Shown in pieces: positions 15,829 through 26,331 of a stretch of 32,000 nucleotides of DNA. Origin of the DNA: Candidatus Hadarchaeales archaeon. Its GTDB lineage: Archaea > Hadarchaeota > Hadarchaeia > Hadarchaeales > Hadarchaeaceae. A program made the translations under genes and the position numbers. The first letter of the stretch is position 1. Every line of letters begins with the position of its first letter. Where the stretch lies: positions 120,001-152,000 of the forward strand of contig JAWBCC010000001.1 of assembly GCA_038823825.1 (NCBI GenBank), in the 5' to 3' direction. The notes beneath the pieces were generated by a model. That model had not been told where the DNA came from, made no database searches, and saw nothing but the letters and a program-made list of their open reading frames with translations.

Positions 15829-16644
15829 TCATTTGATAGCTCCGCGCGTGAGGCCCATTATCAGATACCTCTGGAAGATAAGAAAGACCACCAAAAGCGG
15901 AATCGAGGCTAGCAAAACGCCCGCAGCCAAAAGCGGATAATCTGGAGCTCTTCCGCCTATTCCGGCCAAAGTCGCTAAGCCATAGACGAGAGTCGTGTCA
16001 GGATACTCGAGCATGAAAGACGGAAGTATAAAGTCGTTGTATGGGACCAAGAACGCCATAAAGGCTATCACTCCTAGAGCCGGTTTTGCGAGGGGAAGTA
16101 TTACTTTTACGAAAGTCTTGAAGTGTCCGGCTCCGTCCATAATCGATGCTTCTACGAGTGTTTTCGGTATGGTATCCATGTATCCCTTTAAGAACCAAGT
16201 ATAGAACGGGACACTTGAACCCGCATAGATGAGTATCATTCCGGCCAAGTTAACTAAACCCAAGCTGCTCATTATCTTGTATATAGCGACCATTCCGACC
16301 AGCGAGGGGAACATTTGAGCAAAAAGCATAAAGGCAAGCATCTGTTTACGCCCGGCAAACTTCATAAAAGAGAAGGCGTATGCTGCCGGACATATCATCA
16401 CAAAGGTTAGAATTATCGTTCCAAGACAGATTATAGCCGTATTCACCGCCCAAAGGATGAAGTGCTGCTCACGGAATAACTTCACGAAGTTTTGGAAAGT
16501 TATGGATTCGGGCATAAGGCTCGGCGGTATGAACGTGCTTCTGAGAGAGGCCGTAAATATAAAGAAGACCGGGAACAACACGGCCAAAACGACGATGATC
16601 AGCATAAAATGACTGAGCAAAATTTCCAGCTTCTCTTTCTTCAT
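15829..16644 (-). CDS. Sugar ABC transporter permease (MalG-like)
   Basis: 6 TM helices and the EAA loop EASIMDGAGHFKTFVKVILPLAKP. ATGA overlap with the upstream permease gene. Confidence 0.9.
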   Translation of the reverse strand: MKKEKLEILLSHFMLIIVVLAVLFPVFFIFTASLRSTFIPPSLMPESITFQNFVKLFREQHFILWAVNTAIICLGTIILTFVMICPAAYAFSFMKFAGRKQMLAFMLFAQMFPSLVGMVAIYKIMSSLGLVNLAGMILIYAGSSVPFYTWFLKGYMDTIPKTLVEASIMDGAGHFKTFVKVILPLAKPALGVIAFMAFLVPYNDFILPSFMLEYPDTTLVYGLATLAGIGGRAPDYPLLAAGVLLASIPLLVVFLIFQRYLIMGLTRGAIK

Positions 16645-17522
16645 CTGACCACCTCTTTTGTGGCTCCAGTAATCTTGAGGTTTATGAAGGTCAGGCCGGC
16701 TAGGATGAAGAAGAGAATGACAGAGAAAGCCGCGGCTATAGCATAGAAGTGTCCTTCACCAAAGGCGAGCCTGTAGAAGTATGTTATCATTATGTCACTA
16801 CCTCCCGGGGCATTTGTAACTCCCGTCGGCGGTCCTCCCTCCGAAAGCATCCACACGACCGTAAAATTGTTGAAATGGAATGCGAATGTGAATATAAGAA
16901 TTGGGACTATCACAGACTTTAGAAGCGGAAGGGTAATTTTCCAAAATTTACGGATCTTACTTGCACCGTCAATTGCTGCGGCTTCATAGACACTCGGTGG
17001 AATGCTTTGGAGGCCTCCGAGGCAAGCACACATCATGAATGGAAAGGCGGTCCAAACATTCACAAGAAGTATTATCATCCTTGCTCCCCAGACGCTTTGA
17101 AATCCTCCCTTAAGGTAAAGGGACCAACTTGTTCCTAACAAACCTCTCCAAGCCATTATCGTTATCGTGGATGGAAGGGCCCAGGGGATTATCAGAAGAG
17201 TCCTGTAGATTGCCCTACCCTTGAGCTTAGGATTGTTCAGGATTATTGCGAGGACAAGTCCGATTGAGAATGCGATTCCAACTGAAAGAGCAGCGAACAA
17301 GAGGTTCCAACTGAAGACACCTAAGAAATATCTGGTGTAGCCTCCTTTGACGATCTCAGCGTAGTTCTGAAGTCCGACAAATTCGTAATGCGGATCATGA
17401 CCAGGACCCCAGTTTGTGAGGGAGATATAAATGTTGTATGTGCTGATGGCAAGGATCGCAAAGCTCATCCCTATGACCGCAGGGAGGATAAAAAGATATG
17501 CGCTTTTTTCTCCGATTTTCAT
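16641..17522 (-). CDS. Sugar ABC transporter permease (MalF-like)
   Basis: 6 TM helices and the EAA loop YEAAAIDGASKIRKFWKITLPLL. Confidence 0.9.
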   Translation of the reverse strand: MKIGEKSAYLFILPAVIGMSFAILAISTYNIYISLTNWGPGHDPHYEFVGLQNYAEIVKGGYTRYFLGVFSWNLLFAALSVGIAFSIGLVLAIILNNPKLKGRAIYRTLLIIPWALPSTITIMAWRGLLGTSWSLYLKGGFQSVWGARMIILLVNVWTAFPFMMCACLGGLQSIPPSVYEAAAIDGASKIRKFWKITLPLLKSVIVPILIFTFAFHFNNFTVVWMLSEGGPPTGVTNAPGGSDIMITYFYRLAFGEGHFYAIAAAFSVILFFILAGLTFINLKITGATKEVVR

Positions 17523-17526
17523 AACA

Positions 17527-18756
17527 TCACCTTCTCTTCGCTATCGACTCTTTCATCTGTTGCACAGCCTCCTCCAACGTGGATGCAGGATCCTGCCCTA
17601 GGACGATCATCTTCAGAGCGTTTGTCCAAGGCGTCCACACACTGTCCATTTCAGGGATTTTGGGCATTATTATTCCATTCTCTATCTGGGCGAGAACTAT
17701 TCTAACCTCTTCCTTATTTTCCATTTCAGCAAGCACATCAAGTCTGCTTGGGATTCTCCAGCCGGCCTGATGCAGAGTTCTTTGGGAATTTTCACTACTG
17801 AGGAATTTCGCAAGATTCATCGCTGTTTCAAAGTTCTTGGATTTTGGGTTGACCATGCAGACTTGAACCCCCACAAACGTTTTCGGATATTCTCCGTTCG
17901 GGAGCTTCGGAAAGTTTGATATCCTATAGGTTATTCCCGCTCTTCTTATTTCCTCGAAGGCCCAAGGTCCATCGATTATCACAGCCGCCCTGCCCGCTTT
18001 GAAATACTCACGCACCGAGTAGGGATTAAGAGTAGTATCTATCGGTAGGACACCGTCCTTTACCATTTGCTGGATGAATCGTGCGCCATCAATGGCGCCG
18101 GGATTTGCGAGTCCTATATTTTCAACATTCTCTTCATCCCCGAAAACATATGCCCCGTAGCCCGACATAATCGGAAAAGAGTAATAAGGATCGACATGTG
18201 GATAATAGAAACCAAAGAAGTCAGGTCTTCTCACGGATTTCGCATAATTGAGAAGGTCCTCCCAGTCTTCAAAAGTGTTCTCAACCAAGCCAGAATTGTA
18301 AATTAAAACTAAGCTCTCCATCAGGCATGGAAAACCCCATATCTTGTTTTCATATGTTACCGCAGAAAGAGCCTTTTCAAAGAATTTGCTTTTCTCGCTT
18401 TCGGGGAAATATTCGTCCGTGATTGGGGCGATAACGCCCATTTCTGCAAACTCTCCTATCCAGTCATGTGGACCGAGCAAAACATCTGGTCCCTTTCCGA
18501 TGGGAACACCAACTCGGTATCTCGATCTTAGATCTTCGATGTTTGCTACCCAGACAACTCTTACGGTGGTTCCTTCTTCTTTCTCAAAGATTTTGACGAG
18601 ATTCTCAACAGCTTCGACTTCGCTCCTGACTAATCCAATCCAGAGCGTGATTTCACCTCTGGGTATTAGCATTTGTCTAGTAGGGATGAGGATTACAAAA
18701 GCAACAACTGCAAGCAACATATATGTGAAGAGCCCAGGTGTTCGACTCAACCTCAC
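17527..18756 (-). CDS. Extracellular sugar (maltodextrin-type) ABC substrate-binding protein, N-terminally anchored
   Basis: 409 aa family-1 SBP pattern (GPDVLLGPHDWIGEF; IIDGPWA) with an N-terminal hydrophobic anchor. It is the first gene of the E-F-G operon. The start is GTG 18756, or ATG 18720. Confidence 0.85.
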   Translation of the reverse strand: MRLSRTPGLFTYMLLAVVAFVILIPTRQMLIPRGEITLWIGLVRSEVEAVENLVKIFEKEEGTTVRVVWVANIEDLRSRYRVGVPIGKGPDVLLGPHDWIGEFAEMGVIAPITDEYFPESEKSKFFEKALSAVTYENKIWGFPCLMESLVLIYNSGLVENTFEDWEDLLNYAKSVRRPDFFGFYYPHVDPYYSFPIMSGYGAYVFGDEENVENIGLANPGAIDGARFIQQMVKDGVLPIDTTLNPYSVREYFKAGRAAVIIDGPWAFEEIRRAGITYRISNFPKLPNGEYPKTFVGVQVCMVNPKSKNFETAMNLAKFLSSENSQRTLHQAGWRIPSRLDVLAEMENKEEVRIVLAQIENGIIMPKIPEMDSVWTPWTNALKMIVLGQDPASTLEEAVQQMKESIAKRR

Positions 18757-18763
18757 ACCAAAA

Positions 18764-18785
18764 AATATTCAAAAATTTCAATATT
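18764..18785. promoter_or_regulatory. Imperfect 22-nt palindrome AATATTCAAAAATTTCAATATT in the malE-like/malK-like divergent promoter region
   Basis: 18 of 22 positions are self-complementary. It overlaps the candidate minus-strand TATA (18780-18787) and the TATA-to-start interval of the SBP gene. The region is AT-rich, so a chance occurrence is plausible. Confidence 0.25.
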
Positions 18786-18838
18786 AACTTTTTTGGATTG
18801 AGAGAAATTAATAAATCCCAGTTCTGTGTAAAAATTAT

Positions 18839-19930
18839 TTGATAAACTTGGCAAGCGTTACCCTGGAAAACGTCACCAAAAAATTTGGTCAAGTAACTGC
18901 AGTTGATAACGTTTCTTTAGAGGTTAAGGATGGGGAACTCGTTGTTCTTGTTGGGCCGAGTGGATGTGGAAAATCAACCTTGATCAGAATGATAGCAGGG
19001 CTTGAGACACCGGACGAAGGAAACATCTATTTAGATGATTTGCTTGTAAACGACTTGCCTCCCAAAGACCGGAACGTTGCAATGGTTTTTCAAGATTACG
19101 CTCTCTATCCACACATGACAGTTTTTGAGAATATGGCATTCGCTTTAGAGAATTTTGGATATGATGAGAGAGAAATTCGAAAGAGAGTCAAAGAGGCGGC
19201 CCATCTACTGGGAATCGAGAATCTTCTAGACAGGAAACCGGCGCAGTTATCTGGAGGTCAAAGGCAAAGAGTTGCACTTGGAAGAGCCATCGTTCGTGAA
19301 CCGAAAGTTTTCCTGTGGGATGAGCCGCTCAGCAATATTGACGCAAAACTGAGAGTCGAAATGAGGGCAGAACTGAGAAAGCTTCAGCGCAGGCTCAAGG
19401 TGACGACCATTCATGTTACGCACGATCAAGTCGAAGCAATGACAATGGCCGATAGGGTTGCCGTAATGAAGGACGGGAGGATAAGACAATTCGATTCACC
19501 GGAAAAAGTTTACAGCAAGCCTGCGGATGAATTCGTCGCGAGTTTCATAGGAAGCCCACCAATGAACTTCTTTGACTGTGTTTTGACGAGAAAGCGAGGA
19601 AAGCTCGTTATAGAGGCTGAAGAGTTTGTGTTGGATGTCCCAAGAGAACTGAAAGATATCCTCAAGGGTTTGGTTGGCAAGGAACTGAGATTTGGAATAA
19701 GACCCGAGGACATATGCTTTTCGACGAAGAAAGGCGGAATAAAAGCAAAGGTGGATGTTGTTGAGCCATTGGGAGCAGAAGTTCTTGTTCATCTTCTAAT
19801 CGGCAAATCTCCAGCCATGATGCGGACGGATCCGAAGAGTGCACCGAAACCTGGTGAAATGGTTTTACTCGAGTTCCCATCGGAGAAGTGGCACATCTTT
19901 GATAGAAAGACGACAAAGGCGATTATCTGA
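18839..19930 (+). CDS. Sugar ABC transporter ATP-binding protein (MalK/MsiK-like) with a C-terminal TOBE-like regulatory domain
   Basis: Walker A GPSGCGKST, signature LSGGQRQR, Walker B VFLWDEPLS, H-loop HVTHD. Candidate starts are TTG 18839 or TTG 18848 (MASVTLENV). Confidence 0.95.
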   Translation: MINLASVTLENVTKKFGQVTAVDNVSLEVKDGELVVLVGPSGCGKSTLIRMIAGLETPDEGNIYLDDLLVNDLPPKDRNVAMVFQDYALYPHMTVFENMAFALENFGYDEREIRKRVKEAAHLLGIENLLDRKPAQLSGGQRQRVALGRAIVREPKVFLWDEPLSNIDAKLRVEMRAELRKLQRRLKVTTIHVTHDQVEAMTMADRVAVMKDGRIRQFDSPEKVYSKPADEFVASFIGSPPMNFFDCVLTRKRGKLVIEAEEFVLDVPRELKDILKGLVGKELRFGIRPEDICFSTKKGGIKAKVDVVEPLGAEVLVHLLIGKSPAMMRTDPKSAPKPGEMVLLEFPSEKWHIFDRKTTKAII

Positions 19931-22900
19931 GACTGAGAAGGATCTTTAAGATTATGCCAGCCACCACTGCGATTCCGATACTTACTCCTATGAATGTGTA
20001 GTCGAGCTTGGGTTTTTCTTCGAATATTTCGACCGAATATCCCAAATTGTTCTCTCCTCGATCCCAGACGGTTTCACCTCCGCCAATGGCTTTAATCATG
20101 AATGTGAGTTTTACATCCGCGAATGGTCCCAATTCTGCGATCCACCACCCGGTGGTTGGATCGATTTGCATCTGCGTTTCTCCGCTACTACCTTTGTTGG
20201 TCCACCAAACGACAAAAACGCTTTCAATTGTCCCTTCGGTCTGGCATGAAACTCGCACGAAATTACCAAAAAGAACATAGCTCGTGTTTTTTATTTTTAG
20301 ACCGACAGGAGGCAAAGGAGTTCTAACTTTTACAGTCAGAGTTTTCCTCTTTTCTAAAGATCCAGACTTAGCCGTGACTGTTATCTCATAATCTCCGTCT
20401 GAGGTTTCCCTTCCAACCGATATGAACAGGCTTGCCGTGAATGGCGGATAGCCATTTTCAGGATAGACCGAGAGCAGAAAACCTGACGGACCGGAAATTT
20501 TGAGTTCCACCAGATTTTCATACACCCCCAAATTTTCGATTCTTAACTCCACAGTTTGATTTTCACCTGCTCTCGCCTGAATCTGAGATGGTATGATTTC
20601 AAGTCGGAAGTCTGCCACGGGCAGCGCGACCGTATAGTATACAATGACTGTTTTTGTATTAACATCTTTCAGATTTAACCTAAGTTTTTCTCCGTCGACG
20701 TGCACTATGTCGTTTTCGCCATCTATTTCCACTGTTACAGCAGGAAGTCCAGCCGGTAGGGTCAGCTCAAGCAGAATCTGTTCATTTTGCGCAGAGATAT
20801 CGACCTTTTGCATATTTTCATTCCAAGAGTAACTGACCTTCAGCGGCTTCCCTCTCACAATAGTTCTGCCAGAAAGGAGATTCGTGTTCTCAAGAGGTTT
20901 AGGAGATATAACTGTATAGTTCTCGAACGGCTTTACCCCGAGGAACACTTGATAATACGTTCTCAAAAATTCTGCAATCGACCAAGCCTGCGTCCAGCAA
21001 CCTTTTGGCTTATCTCTATCACCATCGCTAATCTCGTGAATGGCCCCAACGTTTGCTTGCTGGAGTAGTTGCTTTTTGAATAAATGAAAGAGATGTGAAG
21101 CTTCCCCAAGCTTATTCGATTCTGCCATGACTTCTATCGCAGGACCAGATAACCACGGCCAGACATCTCCGTTGTGATATGCGGGTGGATCCCACGTTTG
21201 ATCGTCAATTCCAACGTAAAGCGGATCCGCCGGATTTAGCGATCTTACACCATGCGCCGCTATCAGTCCGCTTGAGATCGCAGTTTTAATGGCTTGCTCT
21301 ATTTTCTCTGAGGGAAGCAAATTCTCGGCTACGGAGATAGCTATTAGAGCGTTCGGTCGGATTCTAGCCACTGCCTGCCCTGCGGGTGTAATATAATCGT
21401 TGAGGTATCCTGTCGATTGGTTCCAGAATTTAGCTTCAAAGTTCTTACGCGCATTTTCGGCTATCTCCCACCACTTCGCACTCTTTTGATTTTGTCCCAA
21501 AATTCCAGCAATTTTTGCCGCATCATCCAGAGCCTTTATCCACAAAGCCTGTATCTCTACGGGTTTTCCTATCCTAGGATCTCTCGAAGTGTCCATCCAA
21601 GTTTCCAAATTGTCACTTCTGACGAAGCCGTCTGTTGGATCACCGTAGACCGCCCAAGTTCTCTCGATCGCTCTTTCGATCACCGGGAAGATGTCGGAGA
21701 GAAATCCACTATCTCCACTGTACAGATAATACTCATAGCATCTGATGATGAACCACAAGGTGGCGTCGGAGGTCGTATAGGCGCGCCAGTCACCAATCCT
21801 GTTCGGAATGCGACCGTCGCTTTCCCTCTGAAATCCTGCGAAGCTTAGGATTATCTCTTTTGCTTCTTGAAGTCTACCAGTAACGAGTGCAGACCCGCTC
21901 AGACTTATGAAAGTGTCTCTTCCCCACCCCTGATTGAACCAAGGAAGACCAGCCCATATCACTTTTCCAAATTCTTCATTCACGATCAAACTGTCAACGG
22001 AGGCTACAGCAAGCTTTAGAGCTTTTGTTAATGAAGGATCCGAGGTCTGAATCTCGCATGACTGTATGAGCGAAAGAATTCTGGATCTCTTTGTGTCCAG
22101 CAGGTCGGAATAGCTATTGATCGCCGATCTCGCTAAAGATATGGCTTCCTGAGAGGTTTTACCAACAGCAATGGCAAATAGGACATCCCGAGCATTTTCA
22201 ACGACAAGAGTTCCACTTCTATAAACGTTCCAAAAAATCCGTTGTTTGTTTTCTATTCTCATTTCATCGAAAGGATATTCGTGCGTGGCGCTTCCCCCTC
22301 CCGACTGATAGGTGGCTCCTTCTCGACAGGTGATTGCCACATATGCCACATTCTCTCTGTCGGACGCCCTAGAATGAAGTACAAGCACACCATTCTCGAA
22401 GTATTCCTCGTCGCTATATGAGATATCCAGAAATGGTGTGAATCTGATGGTAGACTGTGAATCTCCTGCGTATCTTACGAAGAAAACGTTTAGGTTATCT
22501 GGAAGGAAAATTTCTTCGGTCCAGCCACCGGCGGATCTGAGCAGTTTGTAAGGCAGATATGTAAAAGTTGATGGGGCGGGCGTAATTCTTTGCCCGCCGA
22601 TTTCGGTTGCCCAGCTTTCAACGACTCGTTTATTCTTCACAGTAAAACCGGAAAACTGCGAAATTGGCTCACCAGTAGTTGAAATCCAGAGAAAAGAGTC
22701 TTTCTTGTTTGTGAAAGTGCAAGCCAAAGACCATTCCGAGTTACCGGTGATTGAAAATTCGGGTTCACCGAATTCTATTGATGAGTTGAGCCACATCGGA
22801 AAATTCTCAAAGATTCCCAGTTCGCTTGGAACTTCTCCGGACATCCCCACAGATTTTACCGCGTTTTCGGCAGCTTGGAGCGCAAGATTCAGGGCTGTGT

Positions 22901-24191
22901 AGCACTTCTGTGCCCAATCCTGAGAATCCCAGAACCAGTAGCAACTTGTTTCTGCCATCGCAAAATATCCCCAAGCCCTTTTCATGTAGCTCTCTGCCAG
23001 TGATCCGTAAATTTGAGAATCGATTTGTTTGAGTTGTTGTCTAACCTCCGCAACTCTTTGCCACATCTCTCTGTCTAGCTGGCTACCGGCCCAAGTCGAG
23101 AGGTCTAATCTTGCTCCGCCTACTCCCCAGGAGCCGGTTTTTATCTTTATCACGTCGGTCGGGCGGTAGACTTCACGCAGATACTCGCTGATAGTGGTTA
23201 ACCTTATCCAACCTTCATTTTTGATTCGCTCAAGAAATCCTGGCCAGAACCAGTCGTAATATCCGGCTCCTGCCTGTCGCATCCATCCGTTTTCACCATC
23301 GCTTAGTATGACTACGAGGAAAGGTTTGCTCGGATCGTTGTTCCACTGCTGAATTATTCTGAGTTGATCAATCAGGTAAGCCGGATCGAAGCCATCCTGC
23401 TGGTTCTGACCGAGCCAGTGCTCCCTTGGAATGACGATTATAAAAACTCCAGCATATTCGGCTAGGTGCGGCCTGAAAGCCAGCTCACAGTATGTTCTGG
23501 ACCATTTGGTGTTATCCGATCCAATGATGTGAAAGCTGTCGAAAAAGACCCACTCTATTCCAAAACTTTTCAACCATGGGATTATATTTTCGCTGAAGGC
23601 GAGTTCGGGTGGAAAGAATCCCTTCGGAGTAACTCCAAAATATTTCTTACACCACGCCAGCATCTTCTGGAAGTGGATTTGTGCATCCTCTCTTTCGATT
23701 AGCGGGAATATTGGGTGATAGAAACCATCGATCACGAGTTCCAATCTACCTGTTTGAATCGCCCGTCTGTACTCGTCCCAGATACCCGCCAGACTTGTGT
23801 CTTTTGAAACGAAATTCTCTTTTGCCAGAAAATCGAGTTGCCACAGAAGCGAACCCGTAAAGTGGACAGTTATCTTTGCTTCCGGATAGGTGTTTACGAG
23901 CGTCGCTGGCCTAAGATAGCAGAAGCCACACTCTTCGAAGACATCTTTAACAGTCATGCTTGAACCAGGACTCGTTGGACTGTTGAAATAATCCCAGCCG
24001 ATCTGCATTCCAGGATGGTAGATCGGTTGGTGAAAATGAACAGCGAATGCGATGTAAAGGGGGACTTGTGTCTGGCTTTTTGATGGTCTTGGGAGTAGTG
24101 CGACAGCACCCAAAAGGACAAGTATAACCAACAGTATCGCAAGTCGCATTCGAATGTTTGTATTATCTCTTGCTGGTAATAAATGTTTCAT
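19923..24191 (-). CDS. Cell-surface multidomain glycoside hydrolase: GH57 domain + amylo-alpha-1,6-glucosidase (GDE_C-like) domain + Ig/NEW3-like domain + putative starch-binding module + C-terminal TM anchor
   Basis: Signal peptide (LAILLVILVLLGAVALLPRPSKSQ). GH57 conserved regions are all present: HFHQPIY (24018-24038), GRLELV, FPPELAFS (Glu codon at 23604-23606), LSDGENGW (Asp codon at 23298-23300), AETSCYWFW. GDE_C motifs: GLPWFNQGWGRDTFISLSG (about 21909-21929) and YHNGDVWPW (21153-21179). C-terminal module: WW..GWW..WDRGENNLGYSV (about 20022-20303). TM plus basic tail at the 3' end. Confidence 0.85.
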   Translation of the reverse strand: MKHLLPARDNTNIRMRLAILLVILVLLGAVALLPRPSKSQTQVPLYIAFAVHFHQPIYHPGMQIGWDYFNSPTSPGSSMTVKDVFEECGFCYLRPATLVNTYPEAKITVHFTGSLLWQLDFLAKENFVSKDTSLAGIWDEYRRAIQTGRLELVIDGFYHPIFPLIEREDAQIHFQKMLAWCKKYFGVTPKGFFPPELAFSENIIPWLKSFGIEWVFFDSFHIIGSDNTKWSRTYCELAFRPHLAEYAGVFIIVIPREHWLGQNQQDGFDPAYLIDQLRIIQQWNNDPSKPFLVVILSDGENGWMRQAGAGYYDWFWPGFLERIKNEGWIRLTTISEYLREVYRPTDVIKIKTGSWGVGGARLDLSTWAGSQLDREMWQRVAEVRQQLKQIDSQIYGSLAESYMKRAWGYFAMAETSCYWFWDSQDWAQKCYTALNLALQAAENAVKSVGMSGEVPSELGIFENFPMWLNSSIEFGEPEFSITGNSEWSLACTFTNKKDSFLWISTTGEPISQFSGFTVKNKRVVESWATEIGGQRITPAPSTFTYLPYKLLRSAGGWTEEIFLPDNLNVFFVRYAGDSQSTIRFTPFLDISYSDEEYFENGVLVLHSRASDRENVAYVAITCREGATYQSGGGSATHEYPFDEMRIENKQRIFWNVYRSGTLVVENARDVLFAIAVGKTSQEAISLARSAINSYSDLLDTKRSRILSLIQSCEIQTSDPSLTKALKLAVASVDSLIVNEEFGKVIWAGLPWFNQGWGRDTFISLSGSALVTGRLQEAKEIILSFAGFQRESDGRIPNRIGDWRAYTTSDATLWFIIRCYEYYLYSGDSGFLSDIFPVIERAIERTWAVYGDPTDGFVRSDNLETWMDTSRDPRIGKPVEIQALWIKALDDAAKIAGILGQNQKSAKWWEIAENARKNFEAKFWNQSTGYLNDYITPAGQAVARIRPNALIAISVAENLLPSEKIEQAIKTAISSGLIAAHGVRSLNPADPLYVGIDDQTWDPPAYHNGDVWPWLSGPAIEVMAESNKLGEASHLFHLFKKQLLQQANVGAIHEISDGDRDKPKGCWTQAWSIAEFLRTYYQVFLGVKPFENYTVISPKPLENTNLLSGRTIVRGKPLKVSYSWNENMQKVDISAQNEQILLELTLPAGLPAVTVEIDGENDIVHVDGEKLRLNLKDVNTKTVIVYYTVALPVADFRLEIIPSQIQARAGENQTVELRIENLGVYENLVELKISGPSGFLLSVYPENGYPPFTASLFISVGRETSDGDYEITVTAKSGSLEKRKTLTVKVRTPLPPVGLKIKNTSYVLFGNFVRVSCQTEGTIESVFVVWWTNKGSSGETQMQIDPTTGWWIAELGPFADVKLTFMIKAIGGGETVWDRGENNLGYSVEIFEEKPKLDYTFIGVSIGIAVVAGIILKILLSLR

Positions 24192-26239: not shown

Positions 26240-26258
26240 CTAAAGTATTCTTCTGCGG

Positions 26259-26275
26259 TTTTTATATCTTTCGAA
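26259..26275 (-). promoter_or_regulatory. Candidate BRE+TATA (minus strand: CGAAAG-ATATAAAA) for the 24188-26239 gene
   Basis: The TATA is centred about 25 nt upstream of ATG 26239, which implies a leaderless or near-leaderless mRNA. Confidence 0.35.
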
Positions 26276-26295
26276 AAAGTTTCCAGCTTCAGGCG

Positions 26296-26307
26296 AAACT
26301 TTTATTA
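26296..26307 (+). promoter_or_regulatory. Candidate BRE+TATA (CGAAAC-TTTTATTA) for the giant + strand ORF
   Basis: The TATA is centred about 28 nt upstream of GTG 26332, which implies a leaderless or near-leaderless mRNA. It mirrors the minus-strand element in the same 92-nt intergenic region. Confidence 0.35.
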
Positions 26308-26331
26308 GGAATATATGGAAAAAATTAAAAG

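Follow-up and report, generated by a model that had tools for sequence, protein, structure and literature searches.

A very rare fusion of a GH57 domain and a GDE_C domain, predicted to be anchored at the cell surface, in a Candidatus Hadarchaeales archaeon

Background

The fusion of two domains is one of the strongest hints a genome can give that their activities serve one substrate. The window analyzed here, a stretch of 32,000 nucleotides from an uncultivated Candidatus Hadarchaeales archaeon (assembly GCA_038823825.1, contig JAWBCC010000001.1, positions 120,001 to 152,000 of the forward strand), encodes a protein in which a glycoside hydrolase family 57 (GH57) domain is followed by a GDE_C domain, the glucosidase domain of glycogen debranching enzymes (GDEs). 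The locus thereby raises the question of whether such a fusion is genuine, how it could have arisen, and what two alpha-glucan-active domains might do in one chain.

A preliminary description, made from the letters of the DNA, had proposed a secreted and anchored polypeptide of 1422 amino acids (aa) in an open reading frame (ORF) at 19923-24191. The ORF was found exactly so (19923..24191, reverse strand, 1422 aa and a stop codon), the profile search that the description had recommended places Pfam families Glyco_hydro_57 and GDE_C within it, and every motif quoted there is present at the position assigned to it. The product is identical to three NCBI entries (MEM1689024.1, MEM1704267.1, and MEM1823066.1), each named 'MAG: amylo-alpha-1,6-glucosidase [Candidatus Hadarchaeales archaeon]', where MAG denotes a metagenome-assembled genome; the gene is thus not new to the database, where its name is generic. 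The fusion is genuine and very rare; both of its families, the mode of anchoring, and the type of locus are well known. A cell-surface-tethered two-headed alpha-glucan hydrolase, part of a locus for scavenging starch or glycogen, is the reading of its function that is preferred here by a modest degree.

Catalytic domains

The N-terminal half matches Glyco_hydro_57 (PF03065) over aa 48-350 with 110.8 bits against a cut-off of 21.2 (E=1e-31), covering positions 1-290 of the 291 in the profile. The five conserved sequence regions (CSRs) of GH57 attributed to it are all in place: HFHQP (aa 52-56), GRLELV (148-153), FPPELAFS (193-200), SDGENGW (297-303), and ETSCYWFW (414-421), with LSDGENGWMR and AETSCYWFW as the fuller strings of CSR-4 and CSR-5. 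The best solved match is 4-alpha-glucanotransferase from T. litoralis (PDB ID: 1K1W, E=8.7e-15); in the alignment, E196 (codon 23604-23606) falls on the nucleophile E123 and D298 (codon 23298-23300) on the acid/base D214. Both residues are invariant among orthologues. Next among the solved matches come two amylopullulanases, that of S. marinus (SmApu, PDB ID: 7E1Y) and that of A. aeolicus (AaApu, PMC12106739). CSR-3 and CSR-4 read FPPELA/DGENGW in the window, WPPEAS/DGENCW in AaApu, and WTPEMA/DGENWM in SmApu. Position 23 of the GH57 sequence fingerprint is Asn, as in AaApu and SmApu; 4-alpha-glucanotransferases have a nearly invariant Lys there, and the amylase groups have Thr, Ser, or Ala (PMC6037648). 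The domain is best described as amylopullulanase-like, without assignment to that subgroup, and owing to this amylopullulanase-like fingerprint it may itself already debranch.

The central part matches GDE_C (PF06202) over aa 734-1077 with 262.6 bits against a cut-off of 21 (E=7e-78, positions 5-367 of 367), and the proposed hallmarks of the family are found at aa 750-766 (PWFNQGWGRDTFISLSG) and 1005-1013 (YHNGDVWPW). It had been considered that this region could turn out to be a GH15 glucoamylase or a trehalase-like enzyme. Profile searches identify it as GDE_C: trehalase reaches 25.5 bits on a sub-stretch beneath the GDE_C match, where GH116, rhamnosidase, and MGH1-like families also give weak overlapping matches, and the GH15 family is not among the Pfam matches. 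An AlphaFold2 model of aa 470-1140 (predicted local distance difference test score, pLDDT, 94; predicted template modeling score, pTM, 0.94) shows a beta-sandwich at the N-terminus, followed by an (alpha/alpha)6 barrel and by the first part of a C-terminal beta domain. The beta-sandwich that follows the barrel (aa 1086-1190) is found in part in the stand-alone GDE relatives, whose alignments reach as far as aa ~1136. Foldseek places the model in the general group of enzymes with a beta-sandwich and an (alpha/alpha)6 barrel (GH94, GH63, and GH116); among its matches TgAMY (PDB ID: 7VMA) has the highest sequence identity, 16%.

The putative catalytic residues of the GDE module were located with HMMER alignments, which place D759 (WGRD, codon 21915-21917) on D1078 of C. 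glabrata GDE (CgGDE), D867 (TWMD, the predicted general acid, codon 21591-21593) on CgGDE D1241, and E1053 (IHEIS, the predicted general base, codon 21033-21035) on E1502 of human GDE (hsGDE). In the GH133 glucosidase site, mutation has verified these counterparts as the Asp that coordinates glucose, the general acid, and the general base, respectively (PMC4837477, PMC12219210); the mapping is based on alignments to GH133 members and not on 7VMA. In an alignment of 67 homologues, WGRD, TWMD, YHNGxVWxW, and TQAW are invariant, and E1053 is conserved in at least 90%.

The former 'archaeal-type GDE' group is now split in CAZy, TgAMY having founded family GH176 (PMC9142091; bioRxiv 10.64898/2026.07.01.735942). 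The family profile of the window module scores 122-127 bits (E ~1e-35) with GH133 GDEs versus 58 bits with TgAMY, which suggests that the module is nearer to GH133 than to GH176 and does not amount to a formal CAZy assignment. The profiles of complete GDEs match in part: TIGR01561 (gde_arch) gives 164.1 bits, below its cut-off of 364.15, with only profile positions 255-563 matched, and TIGR01531 (eukaryotic-type GDE) gives 73.5 bits against a cut-off of 1399.55, through the glucosidase region alone. No GDE_N match was obtained with Pfam in the fusion protein.

Both catalytic domains look competent as far as their residues can tell. Among the fused orthologues, identity amounts to 77% in the GH57 domain, 68-71% in the GDE module, and ~40% in the accessory domains; since the two heads are conserved far above the accessory domains, this pattern fits both of them being functional.

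Predicted topology

The N-terminal signal and the C-terminal transmembrane (TM) anchor of the preliminary description agree with a hydrophobicity scan, in which exactly two hydrophobic segments appear in the fusion protein, one at each terminus (aa ~11-33 and ~1396-1420). The predicted signal peptide consists of a positively charged n-region, the h-region LAILLVILVLLGAVALL, and the c-region PRPSKS, with the putative cleavage before Q; the mature N-terminus (QVPLY..HxHQP) is kept in orthologues. The true start may be M15 (24147-24149), which would yield 1408 aa and is used by orthologues and in some NCBI annotations, instead of M1. A signal peptide results from either start. C-terminal TM segments are likewise present in the homologues P0002, P0003, P0005, and P0017.

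Authenticity and rarity of the fusion

The window consists of metagenome-assembled data, which leaves room in principle for an artefact: two neighboring genes might have been mis-assembled into one, or read through. About 20 independent contigs from NCBI, JGI, ENA, and Logan, produced by different assemblers and up to 463 kb long, hold an identical or nearly identical ORF, and the DNA of the window is 99.5-99.7% identical to contigs of four other assemblies (NCBI, JGI, and Logan). The 90%-identity cluster of the fusion has 11 member sequences. Two further clusters, P0002 and P0003 (1402 aa), show the same uninterrupted frame, the same architecture, and the same neighbors at 64-65% identity. 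GC content is uniform over the gene, folded domains flank the junction, and no separate signal peptide precedes the GDE part. Because of the many contigs, the same-frame orthologues at 64-65% identity, and the even GC content, a mis-assembly or read-through is excluded for practical purposes, and the joining of two genes by the assembler, which the preliminary description had named as a danger, is contradicted by the ~20 contigs and the conserved synteny; the chance of an artefact is negligible.

The fusion is also very rare. An exhaustive phmmer search took aa 1-1150 as its query and covered 1.84 billion cluster representatives (50% identity); P0003, which represents the cluster of the fusion itself, is alone in spanning both halves (aa 17-1149). 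The other top matches cover either the GDE half (aa ~477-1136; P0013 with 54%, P0015 with 43%, and P0016 with 40% identity) or the GH57 half (aa ~18-466; P0014 with 62% and P0017 with 50%). A more distant protein with both halves would rank near the top of this list, and there is none. Among GTDB species representatives, a scan with two narrow GH57 peptide patterns, which detects close relatives only, found one further genome, again from Candidatus Hadarchaeota. No description of a GH57 + GDE_C/GH133 architecture was found in the literature, and no paper was found that links Hadarchaeota with GH57; one review alone names the phylum together with starch and amylase. The exhaustive search and the literature thus give no sign of a common, characterized architecture, the outcome that would have counted against the preliminary description.

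Origin of the fusion and the secreted relatives of its GDE module

The two halves have separate relatives within the sister lineage. The MAG GCA_030018345.1 of Hadesarchaea encodes these relatives in separate genes that lie on different contigs. The GH57 protein P0005 (791 aa) is 69% identical to aa 36-460 of the fusion, i.e., over the GH57 region, and continues with two Ig-like domains, a tail module, and a TM anchor. The GDE counterpart, P0013, stands alone, has a signal peptide of its own, and shares 53-54% identity with aa 477-1136. In the fusion, a complete GDE module, devoid of a signal peptide, therefore separates the GH57 domain from the tail that follows it in the sister lineage; the junction itself shows 43-50% identity among orthologues. 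The most probable course of events is that the gene of a secreted stand-alone GDE, without the part for the signal peptide, became inserted where the GH57 domain met its Ig/anchor tail. Because stand-alone secreted GDEs and stand-alone anchored GH57 relatives are both widespread, the fusion would be the derived state. In the same MAG, an IS605 OrfB/TnpB-like gene lies directly upstream of a gene pair encoding a GH13 protein (915 aa) and P0005 (locus L002, 1692-7756). Mobile elements close to the starch genes could have contributed to the rearrangement.

The preliminary description held that GDE_C enzymes are intracellular. This is true of the GDE_N + GDE_C type of ~650-700 aa, and does not extend to the clade of the window module. 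By a simple rule on N-terminal hydrophobicity and charge, a signal-like N-terminus occurs in 41 of the 66 nearest relatives of the module and in 25 of the 33 with at least 900 aa, versus none of 11 shorter GDE_N + GDE_C proteins (<720 aa). As the nearest relatives are mostly signal-peptide-bearing, including P0013, the closest stand-alone homologue from Hadesarchaea, the novelty is the covalent link to GH57 and not the secretion of the GDE module.

Beyond Hadarchaeia, the nearest relatives are proteins of ~950-1050 aa with GDE_C and a C-terminal Glucodextran_C domain (among P0164-P0253); where the source gives an organism, it belongs to Calditrichota, Ignavibacteria, Bacteroidota, or KSB1. This secreted GDE_C + Glucodextran_C clade is apparently large and uncharacterized. 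Other domain combinations observed among the relatives are GDE_C + CBM48 + GH13 pullulanase (P0105, 1533 aa), esterase + GDE_C + Glucodextran_C (P0087, 1325 aa), and CBM48/53-like + GDE_C (P0143, 1083 aa).

Proposed function and alternatives

The preferred reading, that of a tethered two-headed hydrolase, has direct support in the domain identities, the intact catalytic residues, the predicted topology, the rarity and origin of the fusion, and the genomic context. A Sec signal would export the protein, and the C-terminal TM helix would hold it at the outer face of the membrane. The first head (aa 43-460), a retaining GH57 enzyme, would cut alpha-1,4 and probably alpha-1,6 bonds within starch, glycogen, or pullulan. 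The second head (aa 477-1190), a complete inverting GDE_C enzyme, might act as an exo-alpha-glucosidase that takes what the first cannot. By analogy with the glucosidase pocket of GDE, its targets would be single alpha-1,6-glucose stubs or short branches on limit dextrins; in yeast GDE, the shallow pocket accepts only single alpha-1,6-glucose stubs (PMC4837477). The fusion could work together with a co-transcribed Glucodextran_C surface protein and a neighboring giant GH13 protein, and the resulting maltodextrins and glucose would enter the cell via an adjacent ABC importer (Table 1). Substrate and linkage specificities, as well as any kinetic coupling between the heads, are what we infer beyond this. 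Coupled depolymerization and debranching, as anticipated in the preliminary description, is plausible. In favor of the preferred reading, growth on starch depends on the secreted GH57 amylopullulanases of archaea (PMC11046441).

Several observations weigh against this reading. The GH57 half scores 57.7 bits against the T. litoralis 4-alpha-glucanotransferase and 27-30 bits against the solved amylopullulanases, and its CSR-5 ends with FW (fingerprint positions 35-36), the pattern of maltogenic amylases, where amylopullulanases typically have WW. The calls of the signal peptide and topology are heuristic. No enzymology was found for any member of the secreted GDE_C clade, and the characterized prokaryotic relatives, which belong to GH176 only, conflict with one another (bioRxiv 10.64898/2026.07.01.735942; PMC9142091): TgAMY was reported to debranch alpha-1,6 linkages without direct evidence of bond cleavage, and a preprint doubts this activity (bioRxiv 10.64898/2026.07.01.735942; PMC9142091), while the GH176 member A8F5 is a strict alpha-1,2-glucosidase (bioRxiv 10.64898/2026.07.01.735942). 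The residues lining the main-chain cleft of CgGDE are kept in part only, H1066 corresponding to W751 and R1123 having no clear counterpart. Finally, the active sites of eukaryotic GDEs do not channel, and yeast GDE releases the intermediate between its sites (PMC4837477); for this reason, fusion alone is no proof of coupling.

With the linkage specificity of prokaryotic GDE_C enzymes under dispute (bioRxiv 10.64898/2026.07.01.735942), the GDE_C module might instead be an exo-alpha-glucosidase of another specificity (glucoamylase-like alpha-1,4, alpha-1,2, alpha-1,3, or other), so that the fusion would add a saccharifying or side-activity head. This is consistent with the strict alpha-1,2-glucosidase in GH176, the nearest characterized prokaryotic group, with the disputed alpha-1,6 claim for TgAMY, with the partly kept cleft residues, and with the many clusters of unknown function in the sequence similarity network of the preprint (bioRxiv 10.64898/2026.07.01.735942). 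The secreted clade itself has automatic names only and no characterized member, and an amylopullulanase-like GH57 domain that supplies alpha-1,6 cleavage would render a second debrancher partly redundant. On the other hand, the family profile is much closer to the GH133 amylo-alpha-1,6-glucosidases than to GH176, W756, D759, D867, Y1005, and E1053 of the glucose pocket agree with the glucosidase site of GDE, the locus is specialized for starch and maltodextrin, and relatives are fused to a pullulanase (GH13 + CBM48) and to starch-binding carbohydrate-binding modules (CBMs). A different exo-specificity is the likeliest of the alternatives, and unlikely on balance.

A further thought is that the fusion constitutes an independently evolved extracellular counterpart of GDE, with GH57 in the place of GH13: stubs would be made by transfer or by amylopullulanase-type trimming, and the GH133-like head would remove them. 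So broadly worded, the proposal is held to be decidedly unlikely. Its stricter form, a convergent analogue of eukaryotic GDE in which a GH57 4-alpha-glucanotransferase leaves the alpha-1,6-glucose stubs for the GH133-like head, finds support in the T. litoralis transferase as the best solved match of the GH57 half, and it agrees with the conserved pocket residues of the GH133 glucosidase and with the domain order of eukaryotic GDE, where a barrel of a transferase family likewise precedes a GH133-type glucosidase. It is very unlikely nonetheless: position 23 is Asn and not the near-invariant Lys of transferases, CSR-3 and CSR-4 match those of amylopullulanases, disproportionation outside the cell would bring no obvious benefit to uptake, and P0005, the stand-alone GH57 orthologue, manages with no GDE attached in cis. 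That one head is catalytically dead and serves in glucan binding or scaffolding only is conceivable, GH57 being known to include 'like' groups without catalytic residues (PMC6037648); all catalytic residues are present here and invariant among the fused orthologues, and both heads are far better conserved than the accessory domains, which renders this explanation highly improbable. Among these possibilities, the tethered two-headed hydrolase is retained as the working description.

Tail domains

A model of aa 1100-1395 (pLDDT 82.6) contains three beta-sandwich domains. The last of them is the Trp-rich module. In the middle is the Ig-like domain (aa ~1195-1289), which shares 35% identity with its counterpart in the protein encoded upstream (BLASTP, E=3e-15); the tail of P0005 is 31% identical to aa 1192-1397, including this Ig-like domain. 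Of the earlier 'Ig/NEW3-like' label, the Ig-like beta-sandwich is borne out by the model, and the NEW3 part is weakly supported, NPCBM_assoc matching with E=0.013, below its cut-off.

The tail motif WDRGENNLGYSV is present as quoted at aa 1376-1387. The attribution of the Trp-rich module to CBM25/CBM20-type starch-binding modules was not upheld: searched alone in Pfam, the segment gives nothing at E<=10, hhalign against CBM25/53 returns a probability of 2.8%, and the motif is not conserved, WDRGENNLGY (the WD..N.GY motif) being replaced by METREPAEGSY in orthologues, where VVWWTNKGSSG is conserved. Foldseek with the three-domain tail yields generic Ig/FN3 matches, mainly Ig tandems. The module is not demonstrably a CBM; carbohydrate binding by it is possible.

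Locus and neighboring genes

The upstream gene encodes a protein of 683 aa with a predicted signal peptide, two Glucodextran_C domains, an Ig domain, and a C-terminal TM anchor. The fusion ATG overlaps its TGA (ATGA), a sign that the two genes are translationally coupled, and the signal-peptide c-region 'LPRPSK(A/S)Q' is common to both proteins. A PGF-CTERM-type archaeosortase signal was sought by reading the sequence directly, and no such motif precedes either C-terminal TM helix. The Glucodextran_C gene is kept upstream of the fusion in five further loci (L001, L003, and L007-L009), and its product might serve as a scaffold at the surface or bind glucans. Bacterial secreted GDE relatives have Glucodextran_C in cis, and here it is provided in trans by the upstream one of two coupled genes; the operon pairing mirrors the bacterial fusion and represents a Rosetta-stone-type link. 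In GCA_038858875.1, otherwise 99.5% identical, the Glucodextran_C gene (L007, 3433-5472) is called as two ORFs of 424 and 251 aa, which suggests a frameshift or sequencing error in that assembly.

Divergent from the fusion operon lies the gene of a large secreted GH13 protein, which carries an Alpha-amylase domain (aa 53-488) followed by PKD, Big_1, CarboxypepD_reg, and Big_13 domains, with a second Alpha-amylase_N-like segment at aa 1217-1298. Rfam and tRNA scans of the 27-32 kb stretch, which is occupied by this ORF, found nothing. The spacer between the two transcription units is presumably their shared control region, serving the GH13 gene on one side and the Glucodextran_C/fusion operon on the other. 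On the other flank of the fusion is a sugar ABC importer, syntenic in L007-L009, and the arrangement of the whole locus is syntenic in other assemblies. The 3' ends of the fusion gene (reverse strand) and of the convergent MalK-type gene (forward strand) overlap by 8 bp (19923-19930).

Table 1. Features of the fusion gene and its surroundings, with positions in the 32,000-nucleotide window (TM, transmembrane; aa, amino acids of the respective product)
Feature	Position	Strand	Evidence or remark
Predicted Sec-type signal peptide, aa 1-39	24075..24191	-	Hydrophobicity scan, heuristic; mature N-terminus conserved
GH57 catalytic region, aa 43-460	22812..24065	-	Pfam PF03065; five conserved sequence regions
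Fusion junction, aa 461-476	22764..22811	-	P0005 similarity ends at aa 460; P0013 similarity starts at aa 477
N-terminal beta-sandwich of GDE module, aa 477-678	22158..22763	-	AlphaFold2 model; homologues align from aa ~477-492
(alpha/alpha)6-barrel GDE_C catalytic domain, aa 679-1085	20937..22157	-	Pfam PF06202; structure model
Beta-sandwich after the barrel, aa 1086-1190	20622..20936	-	Structure models
Ig-like domain, aa 1192-1289	20325..20618	-	BLASTP to upstream protein; model
Trp-rich beta-sandwich module, aa 1296-1392	20016..20306	-	Model, pLDDT ~90
Predicted C-terminal TM anchor, aa 1398-1422, with short basic tail (..KILLSLR)	19926..20000	-	Hydrophobicity scan
Upstream Glucodextran_C gene, 683 aa	24188..26239	-	Pfam; ATGA overlap; BLASTP of the Ig domain
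Divergent spacer, ~90 bp, AT-rich	26240-26331		TATA-like boxes both ways (ttttatat, cttttatta)
Secreted GH13 protein, >1890 aa	26332..32000, runs off the window	+	Pfam, hydropathy
Sugar ABC importer	15829..19930	mixed	Pfam domains typical of binding-protein-dependent sugar uptake
MalK-like ATPase	18839-19930	+	Pfam
Solute-binding protein	17527-18756	-	Pfam
Two permeases	16641-17522 and 15829-16644	-	Pfam

Significance

The fusion joins a GH133-like glucosidase covalently to an amylopullulanase-like GH57 domain, by prediction outside the cell. Together with its split-gene relatives and the Glucodextran_C link, it provides a concrete and cheap test system for the disputed specificities of GH133 and GH176. 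It is of value chiefly as a way into the uncharacterized secreted GDE_C clade and into that question of specificity. If the protein were an extracellular counterpart of GDE, it would offer the first functional handle on the secreted GDE_C clade of Hadarchaeia, Calditrichota, Ignavibacteria, Bacteroidota, and KSB1. The locus indicates scavenging of external alpha-glucans in at least one Hadarchaeales lineage, and one chain that combines an endo-acting with an exo-acting alpha-glucan hydrolase could be of interest for one-step saccharification of starch.

Comparison with known systems

The closest known systems include the archaeal secreted, anchored GH57 amylopullulanases (those of Thermococcus hydrothermalis and Pyrococcus furiosus, and Apu of Sulfolobus acidocaldarius), compared together with AaApu and the S. 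marinus enzyme (PDB ID: 7E1Y). Common to them and the window protein are the GH57 core with five CSRs, the Glu/Asp dyad, the DGEN(x)W form of CSR-4, and the aromatic-x-PE-x-A/S form of CSR-3, as well as a signal peptide, C-terminal anchoring, and a context of starch utilization (PMC11046441), with an ABC sugar importer adjoining in the window. None of these amylopullulanases contains a GDE_C/GH133 module, and the window domain differs by its low scores to the solved members (27-30 bits) and by FW instead of WW in CSR-5.

Eukaryotic GDE (GH13 transferase + GH133; PDB IDs: 5D06 and 8ZEQ) resembles the fusion in having two alpha-glucan-active domains in one chain in the same N-to-C order, with the catalytic Asp and Glu and the Asp of WGRD in a C-terminal (alpha/alpha)6 glucosidase. 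It is a cytosolic enzyme with a GH13 partner, whereas the window protein has GH57, is predicted to be extracellular and membrane-anchored, and possesses the prokaryotic N-terminal beta-sandwich. The GDE_N + GDE_C 'archaeal-type GDE' (~650-700 aa; e.g., Sulfolobus GH133; TIGR01561) and the GH176 enzyme TgAMY (PDB ID: 7VMA) share with the GDE module the beta-sandwich and the (alpha/alpha)6 barrel, the Pfam GDE_C domain, and a clan-level catalytic arrangement. They are cytosolic and stand-alone, in contrast to the window module, which scores below the TIGR01561 cut-off, lacks a GDE_N match, and is 16% identical to TgAMY.

Closest to the GDE module is the secreted GDE_C clade (P0013 and P0015 from Hadesarchaea and the bacterial proteins of ~1000 aa), with 29-53% identity over the whole module, signal peptides, and an association with Glucodextran_C. 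Its members have no GH57 domain, whereas the window protein combines the module with GH57 in one chain and receives Glucodextran_C in trans from the coupled gene.

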